64,000 nt of DNA from an uncultured virus (IMG/VR IMGVR_UViG_3300020048_000013) (taxonomy: Duplodnaviria > Heunggongvirae > Uroviricota > Caudoviricetes). The stretch lies in the IMG/VR virus record IMGVR_UViG_3300020048_000013. The stretch is one strand, 5' to 3'. Positions 32,025-63,594 of the stretch are shown in pieces. The translations under genes and the position numbers were made by a program. The stretch's first letter is position 1, and each line of letters opens with the position of its first letter. The notes below the pieces were generated by a model. That model did not search any database. It worked only from the letters and a program-made list of their open reading frames with translations, and was not told where the DNA came from.

Positions 32025-34115
32025 TTAAAATTCCTTAATATTAATACCCATATCGAAATTGACAATATTTATTTGGATATGTTTAATTACTCTGTTTGGT
32101 TGTAATCTAATATCAAGAACAAATTCGTTTGCGTTAATTGTTTCTGCTGTATTATTAGTTTCGTCACAAATCAACTTATAATCATATAATCCACCAATCT
32201 TTTTAAAATATTCAAATATTCCTTTTATTTTATAAAGAGTAGAGTTTCTTGTGGCTTCATTATTAAATTCAAAGAAATTGCTTCTCAAAACTGTTTTCAA
32301 TAAATGTTTTATTCTAATAACCATTCTTCTAACATTTGCTTCTTTGACTATTTCGTCAAGAGTAGTGTTGGTCATATATTCGAATAAATAATTTTTATCT
32401 TCAGTATTATCATATATTATTGCATTTATACCATTATAACTTAATAAATCTTGATTGATTGTTGAATCAAACAATAATTTTGATTGGTTATTGAATTCGC
32501 CTCTATTATAACCTGCACACGGGCTTTGTACTCCGAATATAGAATCGTTTCTACACATCATACCAGCTATATCTCCAGCGACACTAACCCAACGATATTT
32601 GTCGTTATATTTGTCATAGAATTTCTTCATTTGTCCTACTGCGAAAGTAAAACTATTAAATTCTGTTAATGCTCCGATGGAAGTATCTGTTCTTTTGTTT
32701 CCTAAATCAGAAACGACTTCTGTATTAGTATCTCCTTCTGACAATCCGATAGTAGATCTCGTCAAACCAACAATCGCAAGAGACATTTCTGTTTCTTTTG
32801 ATATTAATGGCATTGCGTTGAGATATCCTGATAATAATGAAGAATCTCCACAATCATGACCAATAAGAATTTCTGGAATAAGAAATCCGTTCGGACCAAA
32901 AACACTACTAGCAGATTCGTATAAAGTATCATAATCCACAATGTTGCTATAATCAGTATTGTTGTCTAATATTATATTTGTATATACAGAACTATTTACA
33001 TCAGCATGAAGCAGAGTATTAGTACATCCGTTACTCTTACAATATATATATTTGCTATATTTATTTATGTTAGTGTCTATATAATTACTTTTACCATTAG
33101 ATTGTTTTGATGTCGATGTTAAAGAATTTACAAAAGTCTCTACTATTTCAAAATAATCTTCTTTATTTTTTTTCAATACAATCAAACCAATTTCATTTTG
33201 AGTAAAATCTGGCTTTCTTGGAAGAATATATTCAAAAGTAAATGGGTCATAATTGCTATCATATAGAGGATTATCCATATATCTAACAACAGAATTTGTT
33301 ATCATTCCGCTCGAATTTCTTTTTTGTAATATAACGTCGGCTGTGGTTATTGTACTATCAACAGTCCACGATCCGTCATCAGATTCGAAAGTATATGCCA
33401 ATTTTTCGCTTTGTATATATACTCTATCTCCATCTGATATAACATCTGTCGAGAAAGTCCAATATCCAGTAGAACTAGTTGTTTTTGTTAAATAATATAC
33501 ATTATATGTTCCATCATCAACAACGACTCTATCTCCATTACTAAAAGAAGTTACATCACTTGGTAAGTTATTAACTTCGCTTGGATCATCTACATAAATT
33601 GTTTTAACTGCTAAAGTATTATCAAAAATATCATCTTTGGAAATTGATTGATAATATGAAGTTTCGTCTCTACATATTAAAATGGATATATCGTCTAAAC
33701 TAGTTACATATTTTTTATATATATTTAAATATCCACTAGATATATCCAAATCATCTAATGTCTGTAATGCTATTGTTTCGTTATATAAATCACCCAGAAC
33801 ATTATCGTATGTTATACTTCCTGATTGTATAGACATATAAGCATTCTCTGTAGTAGTTGCAAGAGGTCTTACAACATATAAACTGGAAGCATATTTTAAA
33901 TATCCAGAAGCATTAAACCAATCTATATAATTATAATCTGTAGGATATCCAAATATTTTTATTAATTCCGATTCAGAAGATATTTTAATCGGGGTGTTGG
34001 CAGGACCATAATCAGATTTTAACAACATTCCAACAGATGTTTCTATATTAATAGTAGCAGTTTTTTCCGCCAAAACTTGTTTTTCGTTAAATTCCATACT
34101 GCTGGCATATTTCAT
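32025..34115 (-). CDS. Tail sheath protein (gp18-like), paralogue 1
   Basis: FGYP, YDKYNDKYRWV, AGYNRG, NVRR, FEFNNEATR, ICDETNNT, LQPNRVI. Confidence 0.93.
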   Translation of the reverse strand: MKYASSMEFNEKQVLAEKTATINIETSVGMLLKSDYGPANTPIKISSESELIKIFGYPTDYNYIDWFNASGYLKYASSLYVVRPLATTTENAYMSIQSGSITYDNVLGDLYNETIALQTLDDLDISSGYLNIYKKYVTSLDDISILICRDETSYYQSISKDDIFDNTLAVKTIYVDDPSEVNNLPSDVTSFSNGDRVVVDDGTYNVYYLTKTTSSTGYWTFSTDVISDGDRVYIQSEKLAYTFESDDGSWTVDSTITTADVILQKRNSSGMITNSVVRYMDNPLYDSNYDPFTFEYILPRKPDFTQNEIGLIVLKKNKEDYFEIVETFVNSLTSTSKQSNGKSNYIDTNINKYSKYIYCKSNGCTNTLLHADVNSSVYTNIILDNNTDYSNIVDYDTLYESASSVFGPNGFLIPEILIGHDCGDSSLLSGYLNAMPLISKETEMSLAIVGLTRSTIGLSEGDTNTEVVSDLGNKRTDTSIGALTEFNSFTFAVGQMKKFYDKYNDKYRWVSVAGDIAGMMCRNDSIFGVQSPCAGYNRGEFNNQSKLLFDSTINQDLLSYNGINAIIYDNTEDKNYLFEYMTNTTLDEIVKEANVRRMVIRIKHLLKTVLRSNFFEFNNEATRNSTLYKIKGIFEYFKKIGGLYDYKLICDETNNTAETINANEFVLDIRLQPNRVIKHIQINIVNFDMGINIKEF

Positions 34116-34376
34116 TTATTCTCCTTGTGAATGTATTTCGCGTTCTATTTCGTTATCTGTTTTTGTTAAAAAACCATCTCTCTGTAATCTCTCAATAAAT
34201 TCATCACCAGAATCCGCATATGTTAAAGCATCATAAATTTCTGGTTTTAATAATTTTTTTGCAGAGAGTTCATCGTCACGAAGTATATCATATATACCTC
34301 TATAAAAATTCTCAGAACCTTTATTTATCCAAGATTCACTTATAATGTTTTCATATACGTCGTTTAAATTTTTCAT
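34116..34376 (-). CDS. Small protein with putative head-targeting N-terminus
   Basis: MKNLNDVYENIISES. Confidence 0.65.
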   Translation of the reverse strand: MKNLNDVYENIISESWINKGSENFYRGIYDILRDDELSAKKLLKPEIYDALTYADSGDEFIERLQRDGFLTKTDNEIEREIHSQGE

Positions 34377-34385
34377 AATTTATCC

Positions 34386-35033
34386 TTATACTGATACTGA
34401 ACCAGCACTATATGCTGATATAAATGTCGAAACTGCTGCTGTTAATGCTGTTCCTTCGCCCCACATTACTTCTCTGAATTCTACATCAAATGTTGCATCA
34501 AAAGTTTCAAAATCGCCAGCGCCCTGAGATTTATCCAATCCGCTAAGGTCATTGATAACACAACCAAATAACATCCAAGCAGCTATTTTTTCGCCTTTGT
34601 CATTTGTTTGCCATAATACCAATGGATATTCTATACTAGATTTTTCTCCATAAGTATTTGTTAGGTTATTTTTCTTTGCATTTAACCAAGATTCACAGAA
34701 TTTATAAGCTTTTCCGTCTATATCAGACAAAAATGTAACTTTAAATCCTGAAGGTTGTTCGTAGTCGCCAGCAAAATATGTTTTCATTCCCTGAAATTCT
34801 CTTTCAATACTTTTTACTGCCTTTCCAGGTAATGATGATGATTCTACTAAAAATTTTAAATCAGCGAAATTATCATAATTCCAAGAAAAAGTACAATACA
34901 TGAAATCCATCATAAATCTGTTTTTTCTTGTTCCGTTCTTGAAAACATTTTTAAAATTTTGTAATTGTATAAATTTGTCGGGATCAACACTCCAAGTATC
35001 TCCTGTGACATTATTTATGTTGTCGTTAGCCAT
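34386..35033 (-). CDS. Tail tube protein (gp19-like)
   Basis: GTRKNRF...FLVESSSLPG...FQG...AGD...FETFDATF. Confidence 0.88.
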   Translation of the reverse strand: MANDNINNVTGDTWSVDPDKFIQLQNFKNVFKNGTRKNRFMMDFMYCTFSWNYDNFADLKFLVESSSLPGKAVKSIEREFQGMKTYFAGDYEQPSGFKVTFLSDIDGKAYKFCESWLNAKKNNLTNTYGEKSSIEYPLVLWQTNDKGEKIAAWMLFGCVINDLSGLDKSQGAGDFETFDATFDVEFREVMWGEGTALTAAVSTFISAYSAGSVSV

Positions 35034-35053
35034 AAAAAGCTCCTTATTTTATA

Positions 35054-36877
35054 TTATTTTTCTTTATAACTCATTGTAAAACTTTCACCACTAAAATCGC
35101 CATAAAAATTTACTACAATAGTTTCGATCACCTGGTAATAACTAATAGTTATAATTATATTTATAATTTTAGTTTCTTCATCAATCTCTATATCAAGCAC
35201 ATAACTATTTATATCTACGTTGCATAAAGAATCGAGATAAATTTTCAGAACACTATATATTCTATCTTTATATCTTTCCAACGGCGGTTTGTAAGTTATG
35301 TCATTATTATTTATAATATTAGAAACATATTTTTCAATTTTATTACTAATAAGTGAATTAAATCCGTATTTAAATTTAGCCTTATTCGGTTCGCTTGTGA
35401 AATAATATTTCCAATTATTATTTAAAATATTAATTTTATTTTCTTTTAATAAAATTTCGTCTTCAAATCCGTATAGATTAATATAACTTCCGTCAGAATA
35501 ATCTATAACTTTATCAGTTATTATTGTTCCAGCCACATCTCCAGCAACTGGTATATATCTCGTTTTATCATTATATTCGTCATATTGTTTTTTGAAATTT
35601 GCGATTATTAAATTATTTCTGTTAAATATTGTATATCCCGTCGGATTTTCTGCATAAATTCCAAAATCGTTTATTATATCAGTCAATGTCGTGTAATTAT
35701 TCCACATTGCGGTAATACACATGCAAGAAGTATCTATACATTTTGTTGGAATATAATCCATACTACTATCTATTTCGCAATTTAATATCATATTAAAATC
35801 ATCCATATCAATTTCATCTACAGTCGCTTCCCAATCTGCTGGAAGAACTGATATGAAATTATAAGGAGTGTCGTCAAACATCAAAGTATTATTTATTATA
35901 GAATAATTTGTAGTATTTGCCGAACCGCTAAAATATTTTATGTAAATATGATTGGAATTAGTGTTTATATAAGTATAATAATTATCAGCATCTTCTACTG
36001 TGCTTGCTATATATTTTTCAATCAAAGAGAATAATCCAGCAGAGTTCTTTTTAAATACAAACACAGCAAATTCGCCATTATCGAAATCTGGAGTTATATT
36101 AATGAGTTGATAACATTTTTTTATCTCCCCGTCATTGTCTTGTATACCAGAATAAATTTGTCTTATGTAAGTATGAATATCATAATCTATGTAAGTATAA
36201 GTATCTAATCTTTCAACGAATAAAATTCCGCTTTTATAAATTTCTGTTTCTTCATCTTCTATATAATAACTTGCACCTTCTGATATAGATATTATACTCC
36301 AAGACAAGTTATCTGAAGGGTCGTATGTAGCAATAGCCAAATTTCCTTCCAATCCAGACCATTCACCAATAGCACCATCTGGTATTATATAAGTATCTTG
36401 GTCTTCTGGATCTGACGGTGCTTCTGTTAAAGAACGACTTATAACTTTATCTACATATTCATTAGTCAGAGGGTTTTTCCACGATGATATATTGTCACAT
36501 ATAACAACCGCAGTATCTTCTTCACTATTACAATATCTTTCTATTACGCTAAAAACACTATTTGCATCACTTGGCAAGTTATCAACATCAGCAACAGTGC
36601 TGTTATAAAAATCTGTAATAGAATTTTTAACTGGAATAACATCATCATAAATATCGAGCATTTTGCTTTCTGATAGAACAGAAAGAGGTCTCATGACATA
36701 AATAACATTTTGATATTTTAAATAATTATATATACAAAACCATGATTTATAATTTTCTTCTTGAGGTAATCCGAATTTTCTTATTAAATCGTAGGAGTTA
36801 TAAACGGCAATAGGGGAAACTGATTCCCCTACATTGCTATTCAATAATGATACTGTTATTCTGTCTTTTAATTCCAC
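35054..36877 (-). CDS. Tail sheath-like protein, divergent paralogue 2
   Basis: KFGLP, NYLKY...VMRP, YDEYNDKTRYIPVAGDVAG; shortened C-terminal domains. Confidence 0.8.
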   Translation of the reverse strand: MELKDRITVSLLNSNVGESVSPIAVYNSYDLIRKFGLPQEENYKSWFCIYNYLKYQNVIYVMRPLSVLSESKMLDIYDDVIPVKNSITDFYNSTVADVDNLPSDANSVFSVIERYCNSEEDTAVVICDNISSWKNPLTNEYVDKVISRSLTEAPSDPEDQDTYIIPDGAIGEWSGLEGNLAIATYDPSDNLSWSIISISEGASYYIEDEETEIYKSGILFVERLDTYTYIDYDIHTYIRQIYSGIQDNDGEIKKCYQLINITPDFDNGEFAVFVFKKNSAGLFSLIEKYIASTVEDADNYYTYINTNSNHIYIKYFSGSANTTNYSIINNTLMFDDTPYNFISVLPADWEATVDEIDMDDFNMILNCEIDSSMDYIPTKCIDTSCMCITAMWNNYTTLTDIINDFGIYAENPTGYTIFNRNNLIIANFKKQYDEYNDKTRYIPVAGDVAGTIITDKVIDYSDGSYINLYGFEDEILLKENKINILNNNWKYYFTSEPNKAKFKYGFNSLISNKIEKYVSNIINNNDITYKPPLERYKDRIYSVLKIYLDSLCNVDINSYVLDIEIDEETKIINIIITISYYQVIETIVVNFYGDFSGESFTMSYKEK

Positions 36878-36892
36878 AAAAACCTTATTTTA

Positions 36893-37117: not shown

Positions 37118-37121
37118 TTTA

Positions 37122-37733
37122 TTATCCACCAAGATTTTCATCTTCTTCTTCTTCATTATCCATAGATCCGATGTCATCATAGTCATCTTCTTCTACTTCT
37201 TCTTCATCTTCTGGAATTTCTGTTTCTTCGTCTTCTGTCGGATTATCTTCCATTTCTTCTTCATTGTTTTCTACTGGAAAAGCATCCATGTTTTGATGTA
37301 TAATACTATAAACAATATCCCAATCTACTTCATCGGGATCCACATCGTTCAACATATCCGCGTTGTCGGTACATAATTCTTTTAATTCATCAGCATCTTC
37401 TGCGGATTGGATTAAAGAAGCAAATTCTCCGTCATAATTAAATATGTCGTTGGAGTCGTATTCTTTATTATATAACATTGGAATTAAATAATTCAGAACT
37501 TCGTCTGTCGGAGAATTGTCTGGTCTGTTGCGATACATTGCAACATTTGATGGATGATTCGGAGCTTTATCCAAATCATCTGGTTCTTCTGAGTCTGGAT
37601 TATATTCGTCATTACCCAATATATCCATATTATCTTCTTCGTCATCACTATATACATCGGGTTCAAATTCTTCTTTTACAAAGCATTCGCCATAACTTTC
37701 GAATATATTTTTCAATCTTTCGTCTTTTTTCAT
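37122..37733 (-). CDS. Highly acidic protein, possibly head core/internal
   Basis: D/E-rich; LKNIFESY; TATAAATA at 37756-37763. Confidence 0.6.
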   Translation of the reverse strand: MKKDERLKNIFESYGECFVKEEFEPDVYSDDEEDNMDILGNDEYNPDSEEPDDLDKAPNHPSNVAMYRNRPDNSPTDEVLNYLIPMLYNKEYDSNDIFNYDGEFASLIQSAEDADELKELCTDNADMLNDVDPDEVDWDIVYSIIHQNMDAFPVENNEEEMEDNPTEDEETEIPEDEEEVEEDDYDDIGSMDNEEEEDENLGG

Positions 37734-37765: not shown

Positions 37766-38725
37766 TTAATCACTAATTTTATAAATTTTAAATTCGAAAC
37801 TATATCCATTATCTATACACGATTGTTTCTTTAAAATATTTTCTGTTAATTCTTTATTGTACGTATATTCTGATTTAACTTCAATTATTTTATTATCTTT
37901 TGGTATATAAAAATCTGGATAGTATCTATGCTTTTTGTCATCAATAAAAATATACCATAATTTACCTATCACATTTTGTGTGGGATGAATGATGATATTT
38001 TCTTCTCTGTTACCCAATAGAAAATATTCATTTAAAAATTTAAATTCATATCCTTGAATTTTTATAATTTTTCCACTTGGTAATATATAATCGTGTTTTG
38101 TAAATCTTTTAGTCTGTGATTTATTAAAAATTTCTTCACATTGCATTGGATAATCTGTATTATATTTTTTTCGCGATGTTTTTATTTTTTTGTTTTGATG
38201 AACAAATGATTTACTTATATTATCTACACCATATCTATCTATTAATGTATTTTTTCGTTTTTCATATACGGAATTTAATTGTCCAGTATAATCTACATTA
38301 TATTTTTCATTACATGTCTGTTTGCTTTTATTTTTTCCTTTTTCTGATTGTAATGGATAATCAACGCCAAAATTTTTATTATTTGTAATTTTGACTTTTT
38401 CTTTATATTCTGGCGTTTTCGAATATGAATCTACATTATATTTTTTAATAAAAGACAATTTTCTTTTTTTCACGATATTATATTTTTCATCATTAGTTTT
38501 ATTTTTATATGCGTCTGAAATTTTTTTCCTAAATTCCATTACACATGAAGGATTATCTACTCCATATTTTTCTTGACATGTTTTTATAGTTTTTACTGTT
38601 CTATTTTTAAAAAATATAAATTTACACGAATCAGAGCAACACGGAGTTGCTCTTTTATCCGATTCGAATGGTTTATCGCATATTTTACATTTTTTTTTAA
38701 AAATCATAATTTTATTCGATTTCAC
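37766..38725 (-). CDS. Putative homing endonuclease (KYGVD-type repeats plus PD-(D/E)xK domain)
   Basis: Repeated KYGVDN/KYNVD modules; QGYE...YYPDFYIPKDNKIIEVKS. Confidence 0.8.
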   Translation of the reverse strand: MKSNKIMIFKKKCKICDKPFESDKRATPCCSDSCKFIFFKNRTVKTIKTCQEKYGVDNPSCVMEFRKKISDAYKNKTNDEKYNIVKKRKLSFIKKYNVDSYSKTPEYKEKVKITNNKNFGVDYPLQSEKGKNKSKQTCNEKYNVDYTGQLNSVYEKRKNTLIDRYGVDNISKSFVHQNKKIKTSRKKYNTDYPMQCEEIFNKSQTKRFTKHDYILPSGKIIKIQGYEFKFLNEYFLLGNREENIIIHPTQNVIGKLWYIFIDDKKHRYYPDFYIPKDNKIIEVKSEYTYNKELTENILKKQSCIDNGYSFEFKIYKISD

Positions 38726-40940
38726 TAATGTTTATACCCATATCGTAATTGATAATATTAACTATAATATGTTTAATTACTCTATTAGGTTGTAGTCTGA
38801 CATCAAGAACGAATTCGTTAGAATTAATTCTTTCAGCAGTATTATTAGTTTCATCACAGATTAAAAGATAATCATACAATCCGCCAGATTTTTTCAATGC
38901 TTCGAAAAATGCTGTAATTTTGTAAAGAGTAGTGCTTCTAGTACTTTCGTTATTAAATTCAAAATAATTACCTTTCAACACTCTTTTTAAGAATTGTTTA
39001 ATGAATATATTCATTCTTCTGACATTTGCCTCTTTTACTATAAGGTCTAGTTGTGTATTAGTTAAGAATTCAAATAGTATATATGCCTGTGTATCATAAT
39101 CAAAAATTATTTGATTTATTCCGTTTTTAGACAATTCGTCTTGGTCATAAGTTCCAGTGCTTAATAATTTAGAGAAGTTATCATAACCGCCTCTATTATA
39201 TCCTGCCAAAGCACTCTGAGGTCCGTACATCAAATCGTTTCTTGTTAAAAGACCAGCCATATCCCCAGCAACAGGAACCCAACGATATTTATCGTTATAT
39301 TTATCGTAGAAATATTTCATTTGTCCGAATGACATCGTATAAGAGTTAAATTCTGTTAATGCTCCGATAGAAGTATCGTCTCTTTGATTTCCTAAAGAAT
39401 CTATAACAGATTGATTAATTGTTTCTTCGTTTTCTCCAATATATTCTTCGTGATTATATAATGAAACGATAGCAACGCTAAATCCTGTATCATTTGCTAT
39501 AACAGGCATCGAATCGAGATATCCTGATGATCTACCGTTATTAAATCCGATAAGAAGTTCTGGGTTCATCAATCCATTAAGTCCGAAAATTTCGGCAGCT
39601 TCTTCTATTGCAGTAGTTCCTAAAGCTCCAGTCGCATAACTACTCATATCTCTGCCATTCCATGCTGTAGAACCAGTCCAAGGAGCAGAATAATCGACAT
39701 TAGAAACATCGTCTATTGTCATATCTGTTATTGATGAAAGAGTTGTAGAGAAATCGTATTCGTCGTCATTTACTCCTCTATCAAGAGCTTCTGCGATACA
39801 ATATACATATTTACTATTTTTATTGATTACATTTGCTATATATTTTGATAAACCAGCAGTTGTTTTTGCTGTAATATCAAAACTTCCAACAAAAGTTTCT
39901 GCTAATTGCCAATATCCTTGAGTATCTTTTTTAAATATTGCAACACCACATTCATAATTGATGAAATCTGGAGTTGGTTTTATGATATCCTGATAATTTA
40001 CAGGAAGTTTAGTCGAACTGTTATATAATGAACTTCCAAGATATTGAGGAACGACATATTGAACTGTGTTAGATGCTATAACTTTTATTTTAGTTACTGC
40101 GTTATTTACTGGTTGAACAGTTTTTGCTGTAAAAGTTTTAGTTCCAGCTGTTACTGCGTCTAAATTACCAATACAATTATTAACTCCGTCTTCCAAATAA
40201 AATAAAGTATCTGCTGTTACCGCAATAGTTGTATTTACCCAAACAGCAGTAGCGGCATTTTTATTTAAATACCAAATTGTTCCTGATGCTGCTGATATTA
40301 TAGAAAATCCGTGTCCAATTGATCCGCCATAAGCAGAACATGTAACTGGACCATAATTTTCTGCTTGTACTAATGTGGGAACACTTGCACTAACTGTTGC
40401 TGTTACTATATTGCTATTAATATATACGGCAGTTTCAGTAAATATAGGAGAAGCATAATCTCCTTCTTTTGAGCATACTGTTACTGCGATATCATCTTTA
40501 TTAGATATTGTTTTAGCAAAAAATTCTATTTTATCTCCGCCTGTTACTGTTTCGGTATCAAGCAATGCTTCAGCTTTGTCTGGATTATACATATTAGCTT
40601 TTGTTCGAGCGTTAATTGTAACATCATCTTCTGATGGATCATATTCTACACCAACACCAGCATTAGTCCAAGCAGTATTTACGGGTCTAATTACATAAAG
40701 CTCGTTTGCGTATTTTAAATATCCAGCAGCATCAAACCAAGCTTTATAGTTGTATTCTGTAGGATATCCAAAAGTATCTACTAATTGATTTTCTGATTTT
40801 ATATTTATTGGTATATTTCCGTATCCGCTATTTGCAGTTAATATCATACCAGTTCTTGTAGTACCAAATGCTTCTCTTTTAGGTAATCTTACTTCTGATT
40901 CCGTAAAAGTCATACTTGGTGCATAATGTTTATTTGCCAT
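38712..40940 (-). CDS. Tail sheath protein (gp18-like), paralogue 3, probably the major one
   Basis: HYAPSMTFTE N-terminus, RWVPVAGDMAGL, AGYNRG, NVRR, CDETNNT. Confidence 0.95.
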   Translation of the reverse strand: MANKHYAPSMTFTESEVRLPKREAFGTTRTGMILTANSGYGNIPINIKSENQLVDTFGYPTEYNYKAWFDAAGYLKYANELYVIRPVNTAWTNAGVGVEYDPSEDDVTINARTKANMYNPDKAEALLDTETVTGGDKIEFFAKTISNKDDIAVTVCSKEGDYASPIFTETAVYINSNIVTATVSASVPTLVQAENYGPVTCSAYGGSIGHGFSIISAASGTIWYLNKNAATAVWVNTTIAVTADTLFYLEDGVNNCIGNLDAVTAGTKTFTAKTVQPVNNAVTKIKVIASNTVQYVVPQYLGSSLYNSSTKLPVNYQDIIKPTPDFINYECGVAIFKKDTQGYWQLAETFVGSFDITAKTTAGLSKYIANVINKNSKYVYCIAEALDRGVNDDEYDFSTTLSSITDMTIDDVSNVDYSAPWTGSTAWNGRDMSSYATGALGTTAIEEAAEIFGLNGLMNPELLIGFNNGRSSGYLDSMPVIANDTGFSVAIVSLYNHEEYIGENEETINQSVIDSLGNQRDDTSIGALTEFNSYTMSFGQMKYFYDKYNDKYRWVPVAGDMAGLLTRNDLMYGPQSALAGYNRGGYDNFSKLLSTGTYDQDELSKNGINQIIFDYDTQAYILFEFLTNTQLDLIVKEANVRRMNIFIKQFLKRVLKGNYFEFNNESTRSTTLYKITAFFEALKKSGGLYDYLLICDETNNTAERINSNEFVLDVRLQPNRVIKHIIVNIINYDMGINISEIE

Positions 40941-41215: not shown

Positions 41216-41217
41216 AA

Positions 41218-50694: not shown

Positions 50695-50959
50695 AATATT
50701 TCTTATATAAATCCAATGCTTTTTTCTCGTCAACCAAACCAGCTTTAATAAGCTTGGTATAATAGTCAGAAACAGAACTTAAATGATCCAAAGCAATTTT
50801 TTCAGCTTCTTCAAGAAAATCTGTATGTTCAAATTCTACATATATACCTATTTCGAGTTGTTTTTTATCTGCGTCATCGTGAGTAAAATTTTTCTTTTTA
50901 CTATGACCCGCAGTCATTAAATCTTCTAATAATAGTTCATATTGTTTTATTACATTCAT
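50687..50959 (-). CDS. DUF5661-like phage protein
   Basis: QLEIGIYVEFEHT...AEKIALDHL...DYYTKL. Confidence 0.75.
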   Translation of the reverse strand: MNVIKQYELLLEDLMTAGHSKKKNFTHDDADKKQLEIGIYVEFEHTDFLEEAEKIALDHLSSVSDYYTKLIKAGLVDEKKALDLYKKYYE

Positions 50960-50970
50960 TTTTTATTTCC

Positions 50971-51897
50971 TTATGTTCCGAGAACAGATCCCAAATATTC
51001 TATATTTGCAATAAAATGTAAATAACTTGTAGTTTCAAATAAACACAAATCTAAATTTGTATCATCATAATTAATTCCAGCAAATATACCCAAATATTCA
51101 TCTATTACATTATTATATGTAAATATAACCGATCCGCTTTTTATAAAAAAATATTCATTAGCAACAGTGAATGTATAATCCGTTATTTCTGTTTCTTCGT
51201 TGACTAGATAAGAAGCATTTTCGGATTGGGTTGGTGGAACTGTTGTTCCTTTAGTCAGAGTGCTATCTAGAACATTGTTGTGATGTGATAGTGCTGCAGA
51301 ATCATTAGCACCTCTTATTATTTTTATTATAGGAGTGTATGAATATTCGTCTGTTAATGTTGTCGTTTTTAATTTATAATATAGAGTATAGTTAATTCTA
51401 TATACACCACTTTCTAATATTTTTAAAGTATCTAATACAGAATCATTATCTGCTATTCCGAACAAAGCATCGGTGTCTATTGTATCTATTTCTGACGGAT
51501 CGGGTCTTGAAAAATGTATACTAGAAAAATTTAAATCCGTCATGTCTGTCATACAATTATATAAAGTATTTAATGCAGGAGTTACAATTCTAGAAAAATC
51601 TATATTACCGACATTATTATTATTTGAGTCGGAAATTATATTCATAATTCTACTTTTGTAAGAAGCAAATCCCAATGAACTTAAAATTTTATTGTTATCA
51701 TATTCAGAAAAGTCGTCGGTTAAACAATCCGTCGTTAAAAATTTATTCGAAGTTTCATCTATATCTAATTGATTATAAGATGTTATAAAATCAGTATCGG
51801 ATATATCGTGTTTTATTGTATCATCGACAGATTCTATCGGTATAGATATTAAATTTTTTGAATTTGTGTTTGCTGTTGTTTTTATTATCAAACTCAT
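50971..51897 (-). CDS. Putative tail fibre/baseplate-associated structural protein
   Basis: T/S/N/D-rich, beta-rich C-terminus (ILESGVYRINY), clustered with similar genes. Confidence 0.55.
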   Translation of the reverse strand: MSLIIKTTANTNSKNLISIPIESVDDTIKHDISDTDFITSYNQLDIDETSNKFLTTDCLTDDFSEYDNNKILSSLGFASYKSRIMNIISDSNNNNVGNIDFSRIVTPALNTLYNCMTDMTDLNFSSIHFSRPDPSEIDTIDTDALFGIADNDSVLDTLKILESGVYRINYTLYYKLKTTTLTDEYSYTPIIKIIRGANDSAALSHHNNVLDSTLTKGTTVPPTQSENASYLVNEETEITDYTFTVANEYFFIKSGSVIFTYNNVIDEYLGIFAGINYDDTNLDLCLFETTSYLHFIANIEYLGSVLGT

Positions 51898-55519: not shown

Positions 55520-55540
55520 TAATTTCCTTCTGTTTAATTA

Positions 55541-56833
55541 TTAACAACCACCAGTACTTGGTCCGCCACAGCTACCGCCACCGCCACCTGATCCACCACA
55601 ACTACCTCTCCAATCTTCGGTGCTGCAACTATCAACGAATCCTCCGACATCTTTTTTTAATTTTTTTCTTTTTTTAAATCTTTTCTTTTTAACATCTTCA
55701 TTAATGCCGTTATAATTTTCATTTATTCTATTATAATTAACTTTAAGTTTACCTTCCCAGTCTTTTGTTACTTCTGCATTTTCGTTAATAATTAATTCAT
55801 AAATAGTACCCATTTCCATTACTTTTGAAGGTTCTTCGAGAGATGCTTTCCAAGAAACTTTCATACCTTCAATTAATTGATTTTTAGTACGACAAACAGG
55901 ACAATGATATTCGTTTGATTTATAATTTTCATACATCTTTTCTACATTAGAAGGATCTAATGTGCCATGAGGTTTTCTGAAAAAAACTTGTGATGCACCG
56001 CATTCCTTAGCAAATTTGATATATTTTTCTATATCTTCTTTCGTATTTAAATTTTCATTTAAAACTGCGCTGAATGTAACATCAATACCAACTTTATTTA
56101 ATTCATTTGCAACATTTTTTAATTCGCTTTCTGAAATCATTTTAGATCCAAAAATAGAATCATTAATTTTATCAGAATAGTGATGTCTAGAAATGTTTAC
56201 ATGGTCAATCTTGCCTTCTAATTTTGAAACAAATTCCGAGATTTTATAACCGTTAGTAGTTAGAACTGAATGAGGAAAAGTATCCTTGTCTATAAGATTT
56301 AAAACTTCATTTAAATAAGGACTCATTGTAGGTTCTCCGCCCGTCAAGCTCAATTGATAAAATTGTGATGGTAGAGATTCTAAAACGTTACCTAATTTTT
56401 GTATATAATTACTACATCCAGTCGATTTTTTCCAAAAACAAAAATTACACTTGCCATTACATCCACCAGGAAGAACTATAGATAAATTTGGATTCGTTAT
56501 AGTATTCTCAAATAAATCTTGTTCGTCTAAAATAGTTTCATTCATAACACCATCATTATTATTAAACAAATTTTGTTCATCTAATTCCTTCATCTTTTCT
56601 ATAAATTTCTCTTTTGATAATGACCATGATTGTCCTTTATCTGGACCGTTTATGATTTCAAAGGTCATCATATTAGGATCATATTTACGATATCCCCAAA
56701 ATTTAACTCTTCTTGCACCAATGCTAAGTTCTTCACCATGTTTCGGAAATTTAATCTTAGCTTCATCTAAAATAGTTTCTTCGCAATTTTCATTCAGAAT
56801 TATTTCTTTATAAACTTCGTTTAAGTTGCTCAT
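55541..56833 (-). CDS. Radical SAM protein with putative head-targeting N-terminus and Cys/Gly-rich C-terminal tail
   Basis: CNGKCNFC (CxxxCxxC), LTGGEPT, LTTNG, NISRHH; probable start MSNLNEVY. Confidence 0.9.
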   Translation of the reverse strand: MSNLNEVYKEIILNENCEETILDEAKIKFPKHGEELSIGARRVKFWGYRKYDPNMMTFEIINGPDKGQSWSLSKEKFIEKMKELDEQNLFNNNDGVMNETILDEQDLFENTITNPNLSIVLPGGCNGKCNFCFWKKSTGCSNYIQKLGNVLESLPSQFYQLSLTGGEPTMSPYLNEVLNLIDKDTFPHSVLTTNGYKISEFVSKLEGKIDHVNISRHHYSDKINDSIFGSKMISESELKNVANELNKVGIDVTFSAVLNENLNTKEDIEKYIKFAKECGASQVFFRKPHGTLDPSNVEKMYENYKSNEYHCPVCRTKNQLIEGMKVSWKASLEEPSKVMEMGTIYELIINENAEVTKDWEGKLKVNYNRINENYNGINEDVKKKRFKKRKKLKKDVGGFVDSCSTEDWRGSCGGSGGGGGSCGGPSTGGC

Positions 56834-56834
56834 A

Positions 56835-57518
56835 TTATTGCTCTTTTTTATTATTTTTAGTTTTATTATATTTGTCATTTAAATAATTTATATATTGAAG
56901 AAATTCGTCAGAAGTTTTAATTTTTCCAGCCTTCATCATTTTTTTAGTATAATCGTCGATTTTATGTAGCAATTCTTTTGATTCGGGATGAGCTTTAACT
57001 ACTGCATTAAATGCAGCATTTTTAAAATCTTCCATGTTTTTATATTTACCTTTAAGACCAGCTTCTTTTTCTTTTTTAACAAGAGTGGTTATTGTAGTAA
57101 ATACATTTGCGGGTTGTTTATCTTCTTCAAATTCACCAGCTTCGTTTACTTTTTTTTGTTCTTCTTTTTTAACTTCAGCATCAGCATTGTTTTCTGTATC
57201 TTTATTGTCTGCTTCTACATTAGTATCATTTTCTGTAGCTTCTTCATCTTCGGGTTTAGTAAATTCTTTTTTTGTTATTTCATAATCAGAAATTTTAATG
57301 CTTCCCAAATGATTTTTTTGAGAGTATTTTTTAGCAGAATTATAAGTTCCGAACCATTTTACATCTTTTTCTTCTGGGTCGGCACACCATTTGTTATAAC
57401 GGCATAATACCTGTCCGTCATCACCTTCGATATAAAAATTTTTAGATCCTTCGTATAATTCTTCTCCATCATTTCCTTCGAAAATAATTTCTGTATAGAG
57501 TTTGTTTAAGTCTGTCAT
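56835..57518 (-). CDS. Charged protein with putative head-targeting N-terminus
   Basis: MTDLNKLYTEIIFE, VNEA; TATAAATA at 57540-57547. Confidence 0.65.
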   Translation of the reverse strand: MTDLNKLYTEIIFEGNDGEELYEGSKNFYIEGDDGQVLCRYNKWCADPEEKDVKWFGTYNSAKKYSQKNHLGSIKISDYEITKKEFTKPEDEEATENDTNVEADNKDTENNADAEVKKEEQKKVNEAGEFEEDKQPANVFTTITTLVKKEKEAGLKGKYKNMEDFKNAAFNAVVKAHPESKELLHKIDDYTKKMMKAGKIKTSDEFLQYINYLNDKYNKTKNNKKEQ

Positions 57519-57542: not shown

Positions 57543-59060
57543 TTATATTTTTGTTTTTCTTAAAAGCTTCAATTCATGTTCGAAATAGAATTTTTTAAAA
57601 ACTTTAAATTTTGGTATTTCTGGATTTGTATCGTCTATTCTTTTTATAAATCCGATATAGTGTTCCATTTTTGAATTTTTTATCTTGACAATATATCCAA
57701 CTTTTAGTTCTGTTGGTTTTATTTTATGAACATCTTTAGCTTTTTGTGATTTAACGGTTTTATTATCGAAGTTAATAACTACAGAATTATCAAACGATTT
57801 ATAAACTGTTCCCGAAGATGCGTCGTCATTATCAACGACATATACTCTATCGCCAGGAGCGAATATTTCTTCATTATCTAATTTGCTTAAATTCTTTTTC
57901 CATAAATATTCAAGATTGTTACTAAAATCTAAATTAACTCCAACCACATTATTAGAAACTGATGTAACCGTTCCTGTATCTCCAACCTCATAATAAGCAG
58001 AATTTTCGTCGTCTTTTGCAAGAATTTCTACTTTATCGCCAATTTTAAAATCATCTGTTTTTTTAACTTCTGTCTTTTTTTTATTTTCTAAATGAACTAT
58101 GTGCGATTTGTGAGTTGTGAATGTTCCGCCTCTATCAAATCTTACTCTAAAATATCCATCATCAATATCAGAAACTATTACTCCCGGACCATCTATTAAA
58201 GATACGACTTTATCACCAACTTTAAAATTTTTGTCTTCTTTATTGTCTTTTTTATTATCTTTTTTATTATCTTTTTTATCGTCTATTTTATCGTCTTCTA
58301 TAAGTTCTAATGTAGAATCGTGGCATGTAAATATTTCATTACCAAATCTTACTTTATACCATTGGTCTTTTGTATAATATAACACCGTCCCGATATCATG
58401 TAATATCTTGTGGCGAACTCTTTCTCCAGCAGTGAATTTTCTTTCTTCTGGATCAGCTTTTTCTTCTGGTTGTTTTTTATCAAAAAAATCTTTTTTAGCT
58501 AATTTTTCTTTTGGTAGAGTGTGATATTCTCCGTCGCCATAAAATTTTACTGAATTTTTATTTATTATTTCCACAACAGATCCCAAAGGACCAAATGGAT
58601 AATCTTTCATATATATAATATCGCCAATATTAAAACCAACTCTACTCAACTGATGTATATTTGTTTTTTTGAATGATACCGAAGATAACACTTCTTTAAA
58701 ACCAAGATTATCAAAACTAACACTCAACCAAATATCGTTATATATGTCAAAAATAGTTCCTCTTACACCTTTATATTTTTTGCCAGTATATTCTACTCTA
58801 TCACCAATTTTAAACTCGCTTTTCTTTTCTAATTTGTCTTTATTTTCTACCAAAGACAAGTCTCGTTCCATCCAAAATGTCCAAGTTCCATCATCTAATT
58901 TAACAGAATGCTCTATATCATTTTCGCCTTGATAAAATTTAGACATACCATTACTTTTAATTGTTCCATATTTTCTATAATGTTTGTTAAAAACTACATC
59001 ATTAATTTTAAACTTACTTTCTTCGTTTAATATAGTATTATATACATCTGTTATATTCAT
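57543..59060 (-). CDS. Tandem KOW/SH3-like repeat protein (about 8 modules)
   Basis: Repeated F-K-[IV]-G-D-[RK]-V...G-T-[VI] units. Confidence 0.8.
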   Translation of the reverse strand: MNITDVYNTILNEESKFKINDVVFNKHYRKYGTIKSNGMSKFYQGENDIEHSVKLDDGTWTFWMERDLSLVENKDKLEKKSEFKIGDRVEYTGKKYKGVRGTIFDIYNDIWLSVSFDNLGFKEVLSSVSFKKTNIHQLSRVGFNIGDIIYMKDYPFGPLGSVVEIINKNSVKFYGDGEYHTLPKEKLAKKDFFDKKQPEEKADPEERKFTAGERVRHKILHDIGTVLYYTKDQWYKVRFGNEIFTCHDSTLELIEDDKIDDKKDNKKDNKKDNKEDKNFKVGDKVVSLIDGPGVIVSDIDDGYFRVRFDRGGTFTTHKSHIVHLENKKKTEVKKTDDFKIGDKVEILAKDDENSAYYEVGDTGTVTSVSNNVVGVNLDFSNNLEYLWKKNLSKLDNEEIFAPGDRVYVVDNDDASSGTVYKSFDNSVVINFDNKTVKSQKAKDVHKIKPTELKVGYIVKIKNSKMEHYIGFIKRIDDTNPEIPKFKVFKKFYFEHELKLLRKTKI

Positions 59061-59069
59061 AATTTCTCT

Positions 59070-60572
59070 TTATATAATTAATTGAGCATTAATATCTTGC
59101 GTTATACTAATCTTATTTATATTTGTCAAATAAATTAAATCTATAAAAATATCACTTGGGTCATCATCATTAATATAAAATATACCAATCTGTCTGACAG
59201 TATTATCTATATCAACCCAAGAACTACCATTAAATATTTTTAATTGTTCTTCGCTTGGATCACTATTATAGAACAAATCGTTTTCTGATGAATCTGATGG
59301 GTCTGGATCTGTAATTCCGTTAGGAATAGTTAATGTCCAATTTATCAATAATTTATTCAGATTGTATTCTTTTATTTTATTCCAATTAGCTTCGCTGTAT
59401 GCGAGAGCTACATATACACTGTCGTCAACATATTGTGCATTATTGCTATCAATCAATCTATTTTGAGAATTGGCTAAACTTGCGAAATTGATGTCTGTTA
59501 TATTGCCCAGAGTTGCGATAAATCGAATGTCATTCATTCCATTTTCTATACTATCATCTATCAAAAATAAACTTTCGTATATAAAATTATCAACAGAATA
59601 AGAAGAATCTATGCCTGGAGGATAATTTTCATTAATGACTTCTGTAAGTAAATCTACGGAATAATCAGGATATATTTGATATGTTATTTCATAAGTACTG
59701 TTTGTTAACAATACAACTTTATCGCCTTGTTGAGTTGTGTATATAAATTTTAAAAATATACCATCGTTTGTAGTTATAATAGTATCATAAGTTAAATTTT
59801 TTATTAAAATCCCATCAGAATTACTATCTACAATATCAAATTTTCTTCCAGTTAGAGTTAATTCTCCAGAACTTATTTTTGACAAAGTGCTATCTGATAC
59901 ATTAAGTACTTTTATAGTACTCGAATCTTTAGAATTTTCTAATAATACCAAATCTTCAAATCCATCAACATTAAATCCGCCACTACCACTTAAATAAACC
60001 AATTTGTTGGCATTATAAAATTCAATATCGGAATTCTTTTTTCTGATAGGAACGACTATATAAGTTCCAGCATCGTCATTTATTCTTACTGGGTCAATTG
60101 AAGTATCAGATAAATCAAAAATATCGACAATATAATTATCATCAGATATATTTCTACTATCTTTAAAAGTAAGATATTTGTCAGATTCTTCCTTAGTCCA
60201 TTCACTAGGATCTTCGGTTAAAACATAACTAGTATTTTCTACTAATATCCACTTTCTATTAATCCTCAATATTCTCCAAAAATGAGTTCCATAAAAATCG
60301 CTATCAGTATCGCTTGGATCATGACCGCCTTCATTAAATAATTTAATATAATATTCTTCTGCAGATAAATCTAAATTTTCGTTAGTCGTTATAAAACTAT
60401 CTACATCAGATGGATCGTCGGGACATTCTATTCCTATAAGAACAGCATTTCCCCAAGCAACATCATTTCTAGATAATAATCCTACATAAAGTTTATCATG
60501 TATAAGTTTTAAATAATTTATATTATTTATTGTATCTATTCTTACTCCATTTACTATATTATTTGTGCTCAT
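59070..60572 (-). CDS. Probable baseplate wedge subunit (gp8-like)
   Basis: LYVGL...W near the N-terminus, RQIGI...LIYLTN near the C-terminus; position near the gp7-like gene. Confidence 0.6.
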   Translation of the reverse strand: MSTNNIVNGVRIDTINNINYLKLIHDKLYVGLLSRNDVAWGNAVLIGIECPDDPSDVDSFITTNENLDLSAEEYYIKLFNEGGHDPSDTDSDFYGTHFWRILRINRKWILVENTSYVLTEDPSEWTKEESDKYLTFKDSRNISDDNYIVDIFDLSDTSIDPVRINDDAGTYIVVPIRKKNSDIEFYNANKLVYLSGSGGFNVDGFEDLVLLENSKDSSTIKVLNVSDSTLSKISSGELTLTGRKFDIVDSNSDGILIKNLTYDTIITTNDGIFLKFIYTTQQGDKVVLLTNSTYEITYQIYPDYSVDLLTEVINENYPPGIDSSYSVDNFIYESLFLIDDSIENGMNDIRFIATLGNITDINFASLANSQNRLIDSNNAQYVDDSVYVALAYSEANWNKIKEYNLNKLLINWTLTIPNGITDPDPSDSSENDLFYNSDPSEEQLKIFNGSSWVDIDNTVRQIGIFYINDDDPSDIFIDLIYLTNINKISITQDINAQLII

Positions 60573-61965
60573 TTGTAGAAATCTCCTTTGCTTTATTTAT
60601 ATCTTCTTCAGAAAATTCGATAGGATTATTTGATAAATTAATTTTTCCTCTAATAACTTTTCTCGGAAATCCTCTTAATGATGTTATGTTATTATAAGAT
60701 GCTAATAAATCTCCTTTTACTACTTCAGGACCATCTTCAAAAGATGTTAACATATTTTCGTGTATTTTTAAATATCCATTTATTTTTTTAGGCAAACCTT
60801 TTAACGATGTTATGTTATTATATGACACATTAATTCCATATTTAACAAATATTGGGAAATAATTCAATTCTTCTAGTTCGTTATAGGAAATTAAAAAAAT
60901 ACCATTTATTCTTCTAGGACATCCAATTAAACTTTTTATTTCATTATGATGAATTCTAAGTTCTCCACCAATTGACTGAGGACAATTTTCGAACGACGAA
61001 ATATTATTAAAAGATAAATCCAAATTTCCAGTTATTTTTACATTTTTTAAAAATTCTGGAATTTTGGTTAATGATAGGTTGCTTAATGTAACATCTCCAT
61101 CAATAATACCTTCTTCTATTCTTTTTTTAGTATCTCTCAACACTATTCTTATATGTTTTGCCATTTTATCAACAATTGGCTGAGTATCTTTTTTTTCTTC
61201 TTCTGTCAAGTGTTCAAATACGACCACAAAATCTTTTTTAAATAAATCGACCATTTTTACATTTTCATATTTTCCAATAAATTTTATAGCATCAAAAACT
61301 TCTGCTGATATTTTTTTTGGAGGAACATCTTTTGTATCTCTGAGAGTATATGTGTTTAAATGGATTACATAATCCAATTTATCATTTTTCAATATAATAT
61401 AAAACGAAGGACTATATATATTATTAAAATAATCTTCCATTTTTAAACACCATCTCGTGGATTTTATCATGTTATAAGAATCTTTCCATTCCAACAATTC
61501 TATAACTTTAATATTATTTTTTTCGTATATAATCGGATTAATACCATAATCAATCACATACTTTTTTTCAGTTGTTTCTTTATTATATTTCGATATAACA
61601 CTTGATAATTTTTTTATGGAATCGAAATGAAAAATATTTTTATAATTATCTTTAAATTTTTTCAATTTTAATAATTTATCAAAATTTAATATAAGTTCTT
61701 TCGTTTCTTCAAAGTCTTTTGGAAATGTTATATTTTCTTCAAATAATTGTTTATAAATCCATTTTATATATTCACCATTGCTTGTAATACTATTAACAAG
61801 ACCTTCGACTTCCTCATTTCTTTTTTTAACATATTCTTGAATTTCCAATTTTTCTTCCGAGCTCAAAGAATCGTAATTTTGAGTTTTTTCTTTTTGGAAA
61901 ATTCTTGATAAATAATTTTTACTTACTTCTTGTAATATATTTATGTATTGTTCGTGAAGGCTCAT
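60559..61965 (-). CDS. Leucine-rich-repeat protein with putative head-targeting N-terminus
   Basis: MSLHEQYINILQE; central TRWCL domain; repeats of N-x-I-T-S-L-x-G-x-P-x-x-I-x-G. Confidence 0.8.
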   Translation of the reverse strand: MSLHEQYINILQEVSKNYLSRIFQKEKTQNYDSLSSEEKLEIQEYVKKRNEEVEGLVNSITSNGEYIKWIYKQLFEENITFPKDFEETKELILNFDKLLKLKKFKDNYKNIFHFDSIKKLSSVISKYNKETTEKKYVIDYGINPIIYEKNNIKVIELLEWKDSYNMIKSTRWCLKMEDYFNNIYSPSFYIILKNDKLDYVIHLNTYTLRDTKDVPPKKISAEVFDAIKFIGKYENVKMVDLFKKDFVVVFEHLTEEEKKDTQPIVDKMAKHIRIVLRDTKKRIEEGIIDGDVTLSNLSLTKIPEFLKNVKITGNLDLSFNNISSFENCPQSIGGELRIHHNEIKSLIGCPRRINGIFLISYNELEELNYFPIFVKYGINVSYNNITSLKGLPKKINGYLKIHENMLTSFEDGPEVVKGDLLASYNNITSLRGFPRKVIRGKINLSNNPIEFSEEDINKAKEISTNEHK

Positions 61966-61983
61966 TTTTATACCTTATTTATT

Positions 61984-63594
61984 TTACTTTATGTGATCTG
62001 ATTGAGTTGGATTTATGACTGGATTTGGATTTATTTGATTTTTTCCTCGTTCCATGTCGAAAGAAACTATATCGGATTTTGTTATTATTGTATCATAATT
62101 ATCGTCTGCCCATATTACTGTTTGAAGATATAGTGGCGAATAATTATTCGGGTTGGCGAATGCTGTTGTGCCGGGTATTATATGAACTCCATAATAAGCC
62201 ACTTCATTACTCAAATCATCAATATCAGTTAAATCACCAGTAGTTGCTGGAATATCCTGTAATAATACATCGATATCATAACAACACAAGTTTTCTATTT
62301 TATAATTAGGATTTGGTGTTTCTGATATAGTAAATATAGTTTTTAATAAATTTGAAGATATTTCTCCATCCACATAAGCATATCCTTCAAAACTAAAAAC
62401 TGGTGGTGGAATAAAATAATTTTCAGTAGTTGTTGTTAATTTTTCATTATCATCAGAAGGATCATGATGATCGAATTCATATGAATTAAAAGACCCACCT
62501 AAATAAAAAGTTCCAGCACGCACAGTTCTGCTGACTATATCGTCGTTAGTTTCAATATTACCATACCTTTTTACATTACATAATTGCATCAAAACTTCTT
62601 TTTTCTTAGATATTAGTATATCAGAATATGTAGGAAGATTTGTGAGATTATTAAATTCTTTTTGAATAAATTTATTTATGTCAGAAAATTCATAATAACG
62701 ATCAATCCAACCATGAGGATGAACACATGGTTTTATGTAAATATCCCATTCGTGTTTAGGTATAATGCTTGATATGTCATATACAAAATTCATTTGTATT
62801 GGCGTGTTTGTTGTTATTATTGTTGCTTGTTCAGCAATATCTATATTTTCTTGTTCTGTTAAATCAGTGTTATAGTATTTTATAAGATAATAAAATATAC
62901 TCACAAAATTCATATACATCAAAGTTCCTTTGAATATTTCTGCCGTAGGAATAAATTTTAAAAATAATTTTCTATATTCTGTCGTTGCTGTTATTCTATC
63001 ATCAAGTTCTTCGTCTGTTTCTAAAATATAGATATCTGTCGTTGCTGTTAGATTGTTGTCTTTGATGGTTATTATAGAACTTGTGCCGTCAAATGATATA
63101 GAAGTTCCTACCCATTCATAATCGTCTTTTGATATTTTAAAATAGCCCGTTGCTGAAGTTAATTCTACATCAGTTATAACCGATTCAGAATCTATATTTT
63201 TTAAAATTATTTCAGAAGGATCAGTCATATCCAAATAATAATATCCATCATCTTCTTCTGTTAATAATCCAGAAATTTCTACTGTATCTCCATCAGTCAA
63301 TTCGTATTGTGACGATGTTAATATCGGTGTATTATCAAAAAACGAATAATACATATCATACATAATATTATATCTATCTTTAACAAAAGCAAGTTCGAGT
63401 TCTTTTGAAGTTTCTTTCTTTACGCTTTTTTCTAATAGATAATCTGTTTTTATAGACGGATTATACAAATATTTATCGTATTCAAAATCTAAATAATCTT
63501 GATTTTCAAGCATCGAAACAACTTCATTGATGTTTTTCAGATTTAAAATTTTTCTATATATGTCTAATTTATTATACATTATTTTAGTCCGCAA
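61984..63594 (-). CDS. Probable baseplate wedge subunit (gp7-like)
   Basis: FKGT...W...IKPCVHPHGW motif pair. Confidence 0.6.
   Translation of the reverse strand: MRTKIMYNKLDIYRKILNLKNINEVVSMLENQDYLDFEYDKYLYNPSIKTDYLLEKSVKKETSKELELAFVKDRYNIMYDMYYSFFDNTPILTSSQYELTDGDTVEISGLLTEEDDGYYYLDMTDPSEIILKNIDSESVITDVELTSATGYFKISKDDYEWVGTSISFDGTSSIITIKDNNLTATTDIYILETDEELDDRITATTEYRKLFLKFIPTAEIFKGTLMYMNFVSIFYYLIKYYNTDLTEQENIDIAEQATIITTNTPIQMNFVYDISSIIPKHEWDIYIKPCVHPHGWIDRYYEFSDINKFIQKEFNNLTNLPTYSDILISKKKEVLMQLCNVKRYGNIETNDDIVSRTVRAGTFYLGGSFNSYEFDHHDPSDDNEKLTTTTENYFIPPPVFSFEGYAYVDGEISSNLLKTIFTISETPNPNYKIENLCCYDIDVLLQDIPATTGDLTDIDDLSNEVAYYGVHIIPGTTAFANPNNYSPLYLQTVIWADDNYDTIITKSDIVSFDMERGKNQINPNPVINPTQSDHIK

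Follow-up and report, generated by a model that had tools for sequence, protein, structure and literature searches.

Why should a single four-residue word recur throughout the tail proteins of one phage? The question arises from a 64,000-nucleotide stretch (hereafter the window) of the 197,135-base contig of an uncultured member of the Caudoviricetes, IMG/VR record IMGVR_UViG_3300020048_000013. An earlier note on this DNA had counted 18 copies of Asp-Pro-Ser followed by Asp or Glu (DPS[DE]) and proposed that they constitute a Ser-directed sequon on exposed tail proteins. We took as the window proteome the 73 open reading frames (ORFs) of at least 60 residues on the minus strand (20,499 aa in total), and all motif counts refer to the window unless otherwise stated. 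Translation of all ORFs recovered every one of the 18 copies in place, on the minus strand and in the frames of real genes. They are carried by eight of the 73 ORFs, all located between positions 32025 and 63594 and encoding four tail-sheath paralogs and four other proteins (Table 1). The remaining 65 ORFs, including a family of six paralogs encoded at 20251-31938, have no DPS[DE], nor do the three frames of the plus strand. The reported absence of the word from the tail tube, the terminase and the early proteins likewise holds, as we found none in the tube, in either terminase subunit or in anything below position 32025. On the sequence comparisons set out below, we regard DPS[DE] as a short linear motif that is specific to this lineage and maintained by selection at the peptide level.

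The excess over chance is large. Composition predicts 0.39 occurrences, in keeping with the well under one chance hit estimated initially, and training a first-order Markov model on the proteins without the word puts the expectation at 0.33. When residues were shuffled within each protein, the word turned up 0.40 times on average over 500 shuffles and never more than 3 times. The 18 observed copies represent a ~45-fold excess, with a Poisson tail of ~5e-24 for at least 18 hits. DPSE (10 copies) and DPSD (8 copies) are the two commonest tetrapeptides of the window proteome, and those that follow in frequency (NIWT, IWTD and TDEY) stem from repeated homing-endonuclease paralogs. The word is also strict, with zero occurrences of the variants DPT[DE], EPS[DE] and NPS[DE] across the proteome. 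Within the eight carriers, Asp-Pro is followed by Ser-Asp or Ser-Glu in 18 of 22 instances, versus 0 of 23 in the other 65 ORFs (Fisher p = 4e-9). The residues flanking the motif show no strong preference, and all 18 sites are internal in their proteins. The site at residue 101 of sheath C and that at residue 102 of sheath D occupy the same hairpin loop of two paralogs, and two of the site pairs are tandem; we therefore count ~15 independent loops rather than 18. An invariant Ser from which Thr is excluded would fit an acceptor or contact residue better than a generic turn, and closely spaced copies, as in DPSDPSD, DPSEIDPSE and DPDPSD...DPSE, resemble clustered modification sites.

To assign the carriers, we searched Pfam, PHROGs and NCBIfam and also used a fold search and the protein Atlas. 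PF17482 matches three of the four sheath paralogs and PHROG 23 all four; sheath B has no sheath C-terminal Pfam domain, with a DUF2793 insert instead. The four sheath genes surround one tail-tube gene, an arrangement kept in at least two relatives at 50-63% identity (L012, 597-12610; G001, 19349-36537; see below). The genes of the window follow the order baseplate/neck block, terminases, sheath and tube, which is also that of T4. We placed the four non-sheath carriers in the baseplate/neck block solely on the position of their genes, which lie upstream of those for the terminases and sheaths, in agreement with T4. The more specific names 'gp8-like', 'gp7-like' and 'fibre-like' given earlier to these proteins had to be dropped, as none of Pfam, PHROGs, NCBIfam, the fold search or the Atlas supports them. 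With the model of the 500-aa protein the fold search returned chance-level rows only (best E 0.015, TM ~0.1) and the Atlas nothing above 0.76, so that its identification as gp8 is unsupported by either. Neither this protein nor the 497-aa protein has a match in the phage collection.

Table 1. Motif-bearing proteins, their DPS[DE] sites and other genes of the window, with window positions
Feature	Position	Strand	Match or remark
Glycosyltransferase-like block, six genes	4081-9754	minus	candidate reader only
Tail-sheath paralog A, 696 aa	32025-34115	minus	Pfam Phage_sheath_1C, Gp18_domIII_N; PHROG 23 tail sheath
Sheath A site, DPSE, residue 177	33576-33587	minus	
Tail tube	34386-35033	minus	Pfam, PHROGs
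Tail-sheath paralog B, 607 aa, DUF2793 insert	35054-36877	minus	PHROG 23 at 4.7e-9, Pfam DUF2793
Sheath B site, DPSD, residue 186	36311-36322	minus	within DUF2793 match (145-213)
Tail-sheath paralog C, 742 aa	38712-40940	minus	Pfam, PHROGs
Sheath C site, DPSE, residue 101	40629-40640	minus	
Tail-sheath paralog D, 778 aa	42922-45258	minus	Pfam, PHROGs; four sites as two tandem pairs
Sheath D pair 2, DPSEIDPSE, residues 238-246	44521-44547	minus	
Sheath D pair 1, DPSDPSD, residues 102-108	44935-44955	minus	
Large terminase, T4-type	45613-47925	minus	Pfam, PHROGs
Small terminase		minus	Pfam, PHROGs
308-aa baseplate/neck-block protein	50971-51897	minus	no Pfam, PHROG or NCBIfam match
308-aa protein site, DPSE, residue 133	51490-51501	minus	
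497-aa baseplate/fibre-block protein	54026-55519	minus	no family match
497-aa protein site, DPSE, residue 66	55313-55324	minus	
497-aa protein site, DPSE, residue 51	55358-55369	minus	
Radical SAM gene	55541-56878	minus	Pfam Radical_SAM 49.7 bits; within tail block
500-aa protein, six sites	59070-60572	minus	earlier name 'gp8-like' unsupported
500-aa protein site, residue 471	59151-59162	minus	
500-aa protein site, residue 438	59250-59261	minus	
500-aa protein site, residue 424	59292-59303	minus	
500-aa protein site, residue 121	60201-60212	minus	
500-aa protein site, residue 85	60309-60320	minus	
500-aa protein site, residue 53	60405-60416	minus	
536-aa protein, two sites	61984-63594	minus	earlier name 'gp7-like' unsupported
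536-aa protein site, DPSD, residue 378	62452-62463	minus	
536-aa protein site, DPSE, residue 125	63211-63222	minus	
Homing endonucleases, polynucleotide kinase		minus	Pfam, PHROGs

Is the repetition a property of the peptide or of the DNA? A selected nucleotide word such as GATCC, or one oligonucleotide inserted repeatedly, might produce the same protein pattern. GATCC does start 14 of the 18 sites, and it occurs 40 times on the coding strand versus 16.5 expected (2.4-fold). Frequent in-frame GAT-CCN would by itself give this excess, however, and GAT makes up 82% of all Asp codons anyway. At the motif, Asp is encoded by GAT in 21 of 25 cases over both positions (14 of 18 at the first position), with GAC at four sites. 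The Pro codons are CCA (9), CCT (7) and CCG (2), and the Ser codons TCN (13) and AGY (5 of 18, versus a 33% AGY background). TCN and AGY codons differ from each other at all three positions. The mixture of GAT with GAC and of TCN with AGY described previously is thus present, whereas the claim of all four CCN codons has to be reduced to three, CCC being missing. In sum, the Asp, Pro, Ser and Glu codons of the motif all follow background use, and the flanks are different at every site. Because the motif codons match the background, selection acts on the peptide and the word is not a DNA repeat, as had been proposed. We rejected a DNA-level origin on these codon-use grounds and regard it as barely credible.

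The word does not come with the protein families either. G001, a syntenic 61,040-base viral contig rated 50% complete, encodes orthologues of the four sheaths, the tube, the terminases and five baseplate-block proteins at 40-72% identity, with one DPS[DE] in ~18,000 aa of plus-strand ORFs. A more distant 22-kb relative (G002) and six close homologues of sheath D (51-54% identity) have zero. Among the best 150 representatives of 2,264 sheath homologues, we found 2 occurrences in 109,128 aa, versus 2.27 expected. In 79 other T4-like viral loci fetched by sheath alignment, the six-frame ORFs of at least 100 aa gave a single occurrence in 315,834 aa, versus 6.7 expected; the background in T4-like tail regions corresponds to mild avoidance rather than neutrality. 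The possibility that the sites form an ordinary conserved turn, which the earlier note had itself raised, does not hold, since orthologues at 40-72% identity are devoid of the motif; on these alignments, it is not inherited with the fold.

What occupies the orthologous positions was revealed by pairwise alignments with G001. The sites replace or extend short acidic stretches (DGGT, DDDN, DDTT, DSAD, DTND and D--SD) that lie between conserved flanks, often with insertions or deletions (indels). The sheath A site is an insertion relative to its orthologues, those of sheath B read D-DG or D-DD at the site, and the G001 orthologue of the 308-aa protein has DDDL. In an alignment of 10 sequences of the 500-aa protein, the sites fall in variable or gapped columns.

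A few relatives do harbour the motif. L012 is a 12.8-kb contig encoding the four sheaths and the tube at 50-63% identity. Of its sheaths, only the sheath C orthologue has DPS[DE], in three copies, one of which (a DPSE) sits in the same column as in the window, the other two being elsewhere. In L003, a 2.1-kb contig, the orthologue of the 500-aa protein has two DPSE, which are the only two Asp-Pro of that protein, and one of them lines up with a site of the window. A lone site also occurs in another homologue (P0008). Such turnover among relatives is typical of sequons. The window, L012 and G001 are at about equal mutual distance, so that gains are not distinguishable from losses. A genome-contig search returned no relative and a metagenome search one 2.1-kb contig, and viral-contig searches with the radical SAM protein, the 567-aa glycosyltransferase or the tail tube, the last of which yielded G001 again, added no relatives.

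Structural models were obtained for two carriers, accounting for ten sites. The AlphaFold2 model of sheath D (55 sequences, pLDDT 88.9, pTM 0.79) resembles the sheath of Klebsiella phage KP1 (9f4a_SA; Z 40.2, rmsd 2.8, 495 aligned) and T4 gp18 (3j2m_U; Z 31.9, rmsd 3.5, 489 aligned). Its residues 101-109, which hold DPSDPSD, form the loop joining strands 90-100 and 110-120 at a hairpin tip. The first DPSE of residues 238-246 is coil after strand 230-236, and D243 directly precedes helix 244-249. Minimal sheaths (~350-390 residues) align with only 301-321 of the 778 residues of the model, and most sheath D homologues align only from about residue 350 on; residues ~90-350 of sheath D therefore constitute inserted domains. 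Insertions of this kind are known to face outward in solved sheaths. For the 500-aa protein the model is of low quality (pLDDT 60.6); it places each of the six sites between strands, with D53, D424 and D471 starting a one-turn helix. Of the ten sites modelled, with that caveat on the 500-aa protein, four come just before a helical turn and the other six are coil. As to the expectation that the sites map to surface loops, alignments and models place them in variable, acidic, indel-prone loops, and those in the sheath D insertions would face outward.

The main rival explanation, in light of these models, is that DPS[DE] is a structural loop element. The Asp residue would act as a cap and Pro-Ser-Asp/Glu would start a one-turn helix, in the manner of an N-capping box or an Asx-Pro turn, and the acidic loops would be stiffened with no reader involved. 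A possible benefit would be, e.g., protease resistance or stability in the habitat of the phage. In line with this, helical turns on P-S-D/E follow three Asp residues in the model of the 500-aa protein (D53, D424 and D471) and one in that of sheath D (D243), and the loops are already acidic in relatives. Yet many sequences could cap a turn, and a single word is used here, in which position 3 is always Ser to the exclusion of Thr, Ala, Glu and Asp. Orthologues and the 79 T4-like loci either lack the word or have fewer copies than expected, 6 of the 10 modelled sites are plain coil, and 65 other proteins of the same phage do without it despite being made in the same cytoplasm and, for any that are in the virion, facing the same habitat. 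Helix N-capping boxes are generic elements not confined to one lineage or protein class and do not require Ser at N2, whereas this motif is ~45-fold over composition, missing from the other ORFs and found once or twice in large control sets. We therefore consider a purely structural role rather unlikely.

Our favoured reading is that DPS[DE] serves as a tag, recognised by a single shared factor on many proteins that are otherwise unrelated, a proposition for which we see the chances as evenly balanced. The occurrence of ~15 loops in eight proteins of one class, with randomised synonymous sites, orthologues devoid of the motif and turnover among relatives, makes a shared reader the best explanation. 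The invariant Ser, the exclusion of Thr and the tandem copies point to modification of the Ser residue. The scenario would be as follows. DPS[DE] would have arisen time and again in acidic, indel-prone loops exposed on the outer tail, on the four sheaths and the four baseplate/neck-block proteins, and one factor would read it across these unrelated proteins. As such a factor we find most plausible a soluble enzyme encoded by the phage, which would act on the invariant Ser in the cytoplasm, either ahead of tail assembly or in the course of it. The leading candidate for this reaction is O-glycosylation through the glycosyltransferase-like block at 4081-9754; the phage would thereby coat its sheath and baseplate, with individual loops acquiring and losing the sequon over the evolution of the lineage. 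That DPS[DE] is a strict sequon, at which a soluble phage enzyme attaches a group, most likely a glycan made by the 4081-9754 genes, to Ser on folded loops of the outer tail, is a tentative proposal that we hold to be possible rather than probable. Ser O-glycosylation by these particular genes, in which both the enzyme and the acceptor are putative, is doubtful when taken on its own.

Alternatively, DPS[DE] could be a docking or ligand-binding motif through which the loops attach to a shared partner with no covalent change, be it a decoration or fibre protein, a metal ion or a component of the host surface. The earlier note had listed docking of a decoration protein among its proposals, and the recurrence of the word in acidic loops of unrelated outer proteins would suit such a role. 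However, four residues are few for specific protein docking, and a protein partner would have difficulty with tandem copies spaced by three to five residues. None of the candidate partners follows the motif: the 20251-31938 paralogs are also present in motif-free G001, and 60559-61965 and 41451-42902 do not track it either (see below). We find docking improbable.

Several observations weigh against the modification that we favour. The D-P-S-[D/E] word fits the residue preferences of the helix N-cap box (N-cap, N1, N2 and N3), and the capped turn or one-turn helix modelled at 4 of the 10 sites makes a structural role possible. Three large proteins of the block are motif-free (51897-54026, 709 aa; 57543-59060, 505 aa; 60559-61965, 468 aa), as are the six paralogs at 20251-31938, and the weight of both absences hinges on how exposed these proteins are. 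No enzyme could be linked to the motif: of the Ser-directed sequon put forward initially, the enrichment, the selection on the peptide and the location in variable loops of outer tail proteins stand, whereas the modification and its enzyme are hypothetical. The glycosyltransferase contrast has n = 1, and G001, at 50% completeness, also lacks tblastn matches to 45 of the 73 window ORFs. Finally, phage glycosyltransferases may serve DNA modification instead, according to a passage of PMC12619734 that cites Pyle 2024.

As for the candidate readers, the protein encoded at 7092-8066 in the glycosyltransferase-like block passes the Pfam Glyco_trans_1_2 profile (42.6 bits for a cut-off of 25). The neighbouring 567-aa protein (8051-9754) resembles phage and bacterial two-domain GT2+GT1 proteins by Atlas features (0.95), which we treat as a lead only, and it has no relatives among viral contigs. 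The ORFs at 4081-5031 and 5556-6371 gave glycosyltransferase matches below threshold, and PDB sequence searches with two glycosyltransferase-like proteins returned nothing useful. The suggested co-occurrence of the motif with these genes agrees with one case, motif-free G001, which lacks both: none of the 4081-9754 genes has a tblastn match in this contig, and the five ORFs scanned in its syntenic stretch (50,492-57,145) have no glycosyltransferase Pfam match. The comparison goes no further than this single contrast, the motif-bearing L012 and L003 contigs being too short to hold genes of this type.

The radical SAM gene was considered as another reader, which would modify the Asp, Pro or Ser of the motif in the way that maturases of ribosomally synthesized and post-translationally modified peptides (RiPPs) act on short repeated motifs. 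It is located between motif-bearing genes, with a 44-base overlap with the upstream gene, and is not found in the 61,040 bases of G001. Its product has the CX3CX2C cluster motif (as CNGKCNFC) and weak similarity to peptide-modifying radical SAM families. However, the family is widespread, with 282 homologues at up to 75% identity over the core, and only two DPS[DE] occur among all ORFs of at least 100 aa at the 38 viral loci where a homologue is encoded. The neighbours at seven loci (30 of 97 nearby ORFs scanned) include homing endonucleases, tRNA enzymes, terminases and tail genes, with no pattern. No SPASM domain or RiPP-recognition element (RRE) was detected with Pfam or NCBIfam, the NCBIfam matches being far below their cut-offs. 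With no association between this enzyme and DPS[DE], we rejected it as the motif reader; such a role is very unlikely. Regarding the protein itself, its C-terminus consists of a basic stretch followed by a Gly/Cys-rich tail in which the Cys residues are spaced by runs of Gly. Many viral contigs encode the family core, flanked by N- and C-terminal extensions that vary, and the genes often adjoin those of homing endonucleases. Other tail-block genes with no G001 match do not track the motif and were also set aside: 60559-61965 is absent from between the orthologues in L003, and 41451-42902 is absent in L012.

How does the proposed sequon compare with known systems? In Bacteroidota, the general O-glycosylation sequon is D-(S/T)-(A/I/L/V/M/T). 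It is similarly a short word combining an acidic residue with Ser and scattered over many unrelated proteins. Here, in contrast, Pro separates Asp from Ser, Asp or Glu comes next in 18 of 18 cases and Thr never occurs; moreover, assembly of the phage proteins is cytoplasmic, not periplasmic. Relative to T4 gp18, four of the carriers are likewise sheaths by Pfam, PHROG and fold, but the window has four paralogs, conserved in relatives, instead of one gene, and the motif is no feature of the sheath family, given the two sites among its best 150 representatives of 2,264. Virion O-glycosylation by phage-encoded glycosyltransferases is described in mycobacteriophages (Freeman et al. 2023, as cited in passages of PMC12619734 and PMC12582341), with glycans at the C-termini of capsid and tail-tube subunits according to PMC12619734. 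By comparison with that account, the present phage also encodes putative glycosyltransferases with which it may coat its own virion proteins, and structural proteins would be modified in the cytoplasm in both cases. Its tail tube has no site, in contrast, and the sites are in internal loops of the sheath and baseplate-block proteins. The word here is a strict tetrapeptide, in a low-GC T4-like myovirus known from sequence alone. Searching the literature for the whole words DPSE and DPSD together with phage gave nothing relevant among the matches listed.

The signal is clean, as it combines a 45-fold excess, a strict word and a motif-free syntenic relative (G001) as a natural control. If something reads the word, it would be a compact, portable tag for modifying or decorating phage tails. 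It would then follow that phages adjust their exterior by spreading a sequon among loops instead of altering folds, with a bearing on how virions evade recognition by the host or in the environment, and the word would give a rule for spotting modified virion proteins in metagenomes from sequence alone. Should the sequon reading be true, DPS[DE] would be the first sequon to be defined for the modification of tailed-phage virions. If the role is purely structural, it would still be unusual for a lineage to have had one turn sequence spread through exposed loops in proteins of a single functional class.

Turning to the rest of the window, its G+C content is 28% and every recognisable gene is on the minus strand. 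As far as the records searched go, the phage is new, with no near relative among them. The window had no megablast match among 50,697 phage records, and its sheath found distant T4-like phages only (~25% identity) in the phage collection. No major capsid or portal gene was recognised within the window. A weak Gp23 Pfam match at 12556-13080 was discarded as a capsid candidate, as tblastn with the 735-aa ORF of G001 gave short, weak pieces only. The genes at 20251-31938 are six adjoining ORFs (1096, 1025, 507, 643, 208 and 417 aa), which are paralogs of one another, since all of them match one region of G001 (38-44 kb). Searches of Pfam, PHROGs and NCBIfam gave no match for the family, which occupies the position of the T4 portal and head genes.

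The large terminase is long (770 aa), with a sub-threshold match to Pfam Intein_splicing at residues 174-221 (26.6 bits for a cut-off of 35.8); since the G001 orthologue has 792 aa, any insert would be common to both. Between the sheath paralogs, the ORF at 37122-37733 encodes a 203-aa protein with 17% Asp, 19% Glu and 6% Pro, which has no family match, no DPS[DE] and no G001 match. Homing-endonuclease genes (DUF7487 / PHROG 3339; HNH type) are found at 37766-38725, also between sheath paralogs, and at 932-1732 at the start of the window. In a 210-aa ORF (11653-12285), the match to the C-5 cytosine DNA methylase domain is limited to the first 86-87 positions of that domain, and the ORF may encode a truncated or split methyltransferase. 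The window also contains three runs of exactly ten N (6963-6972, 19671-19680 and 30702-30711), the first of which is between genes of the glycosyltransferase-like block and the other two within ORFs (19665-19994 and 30685-31938).

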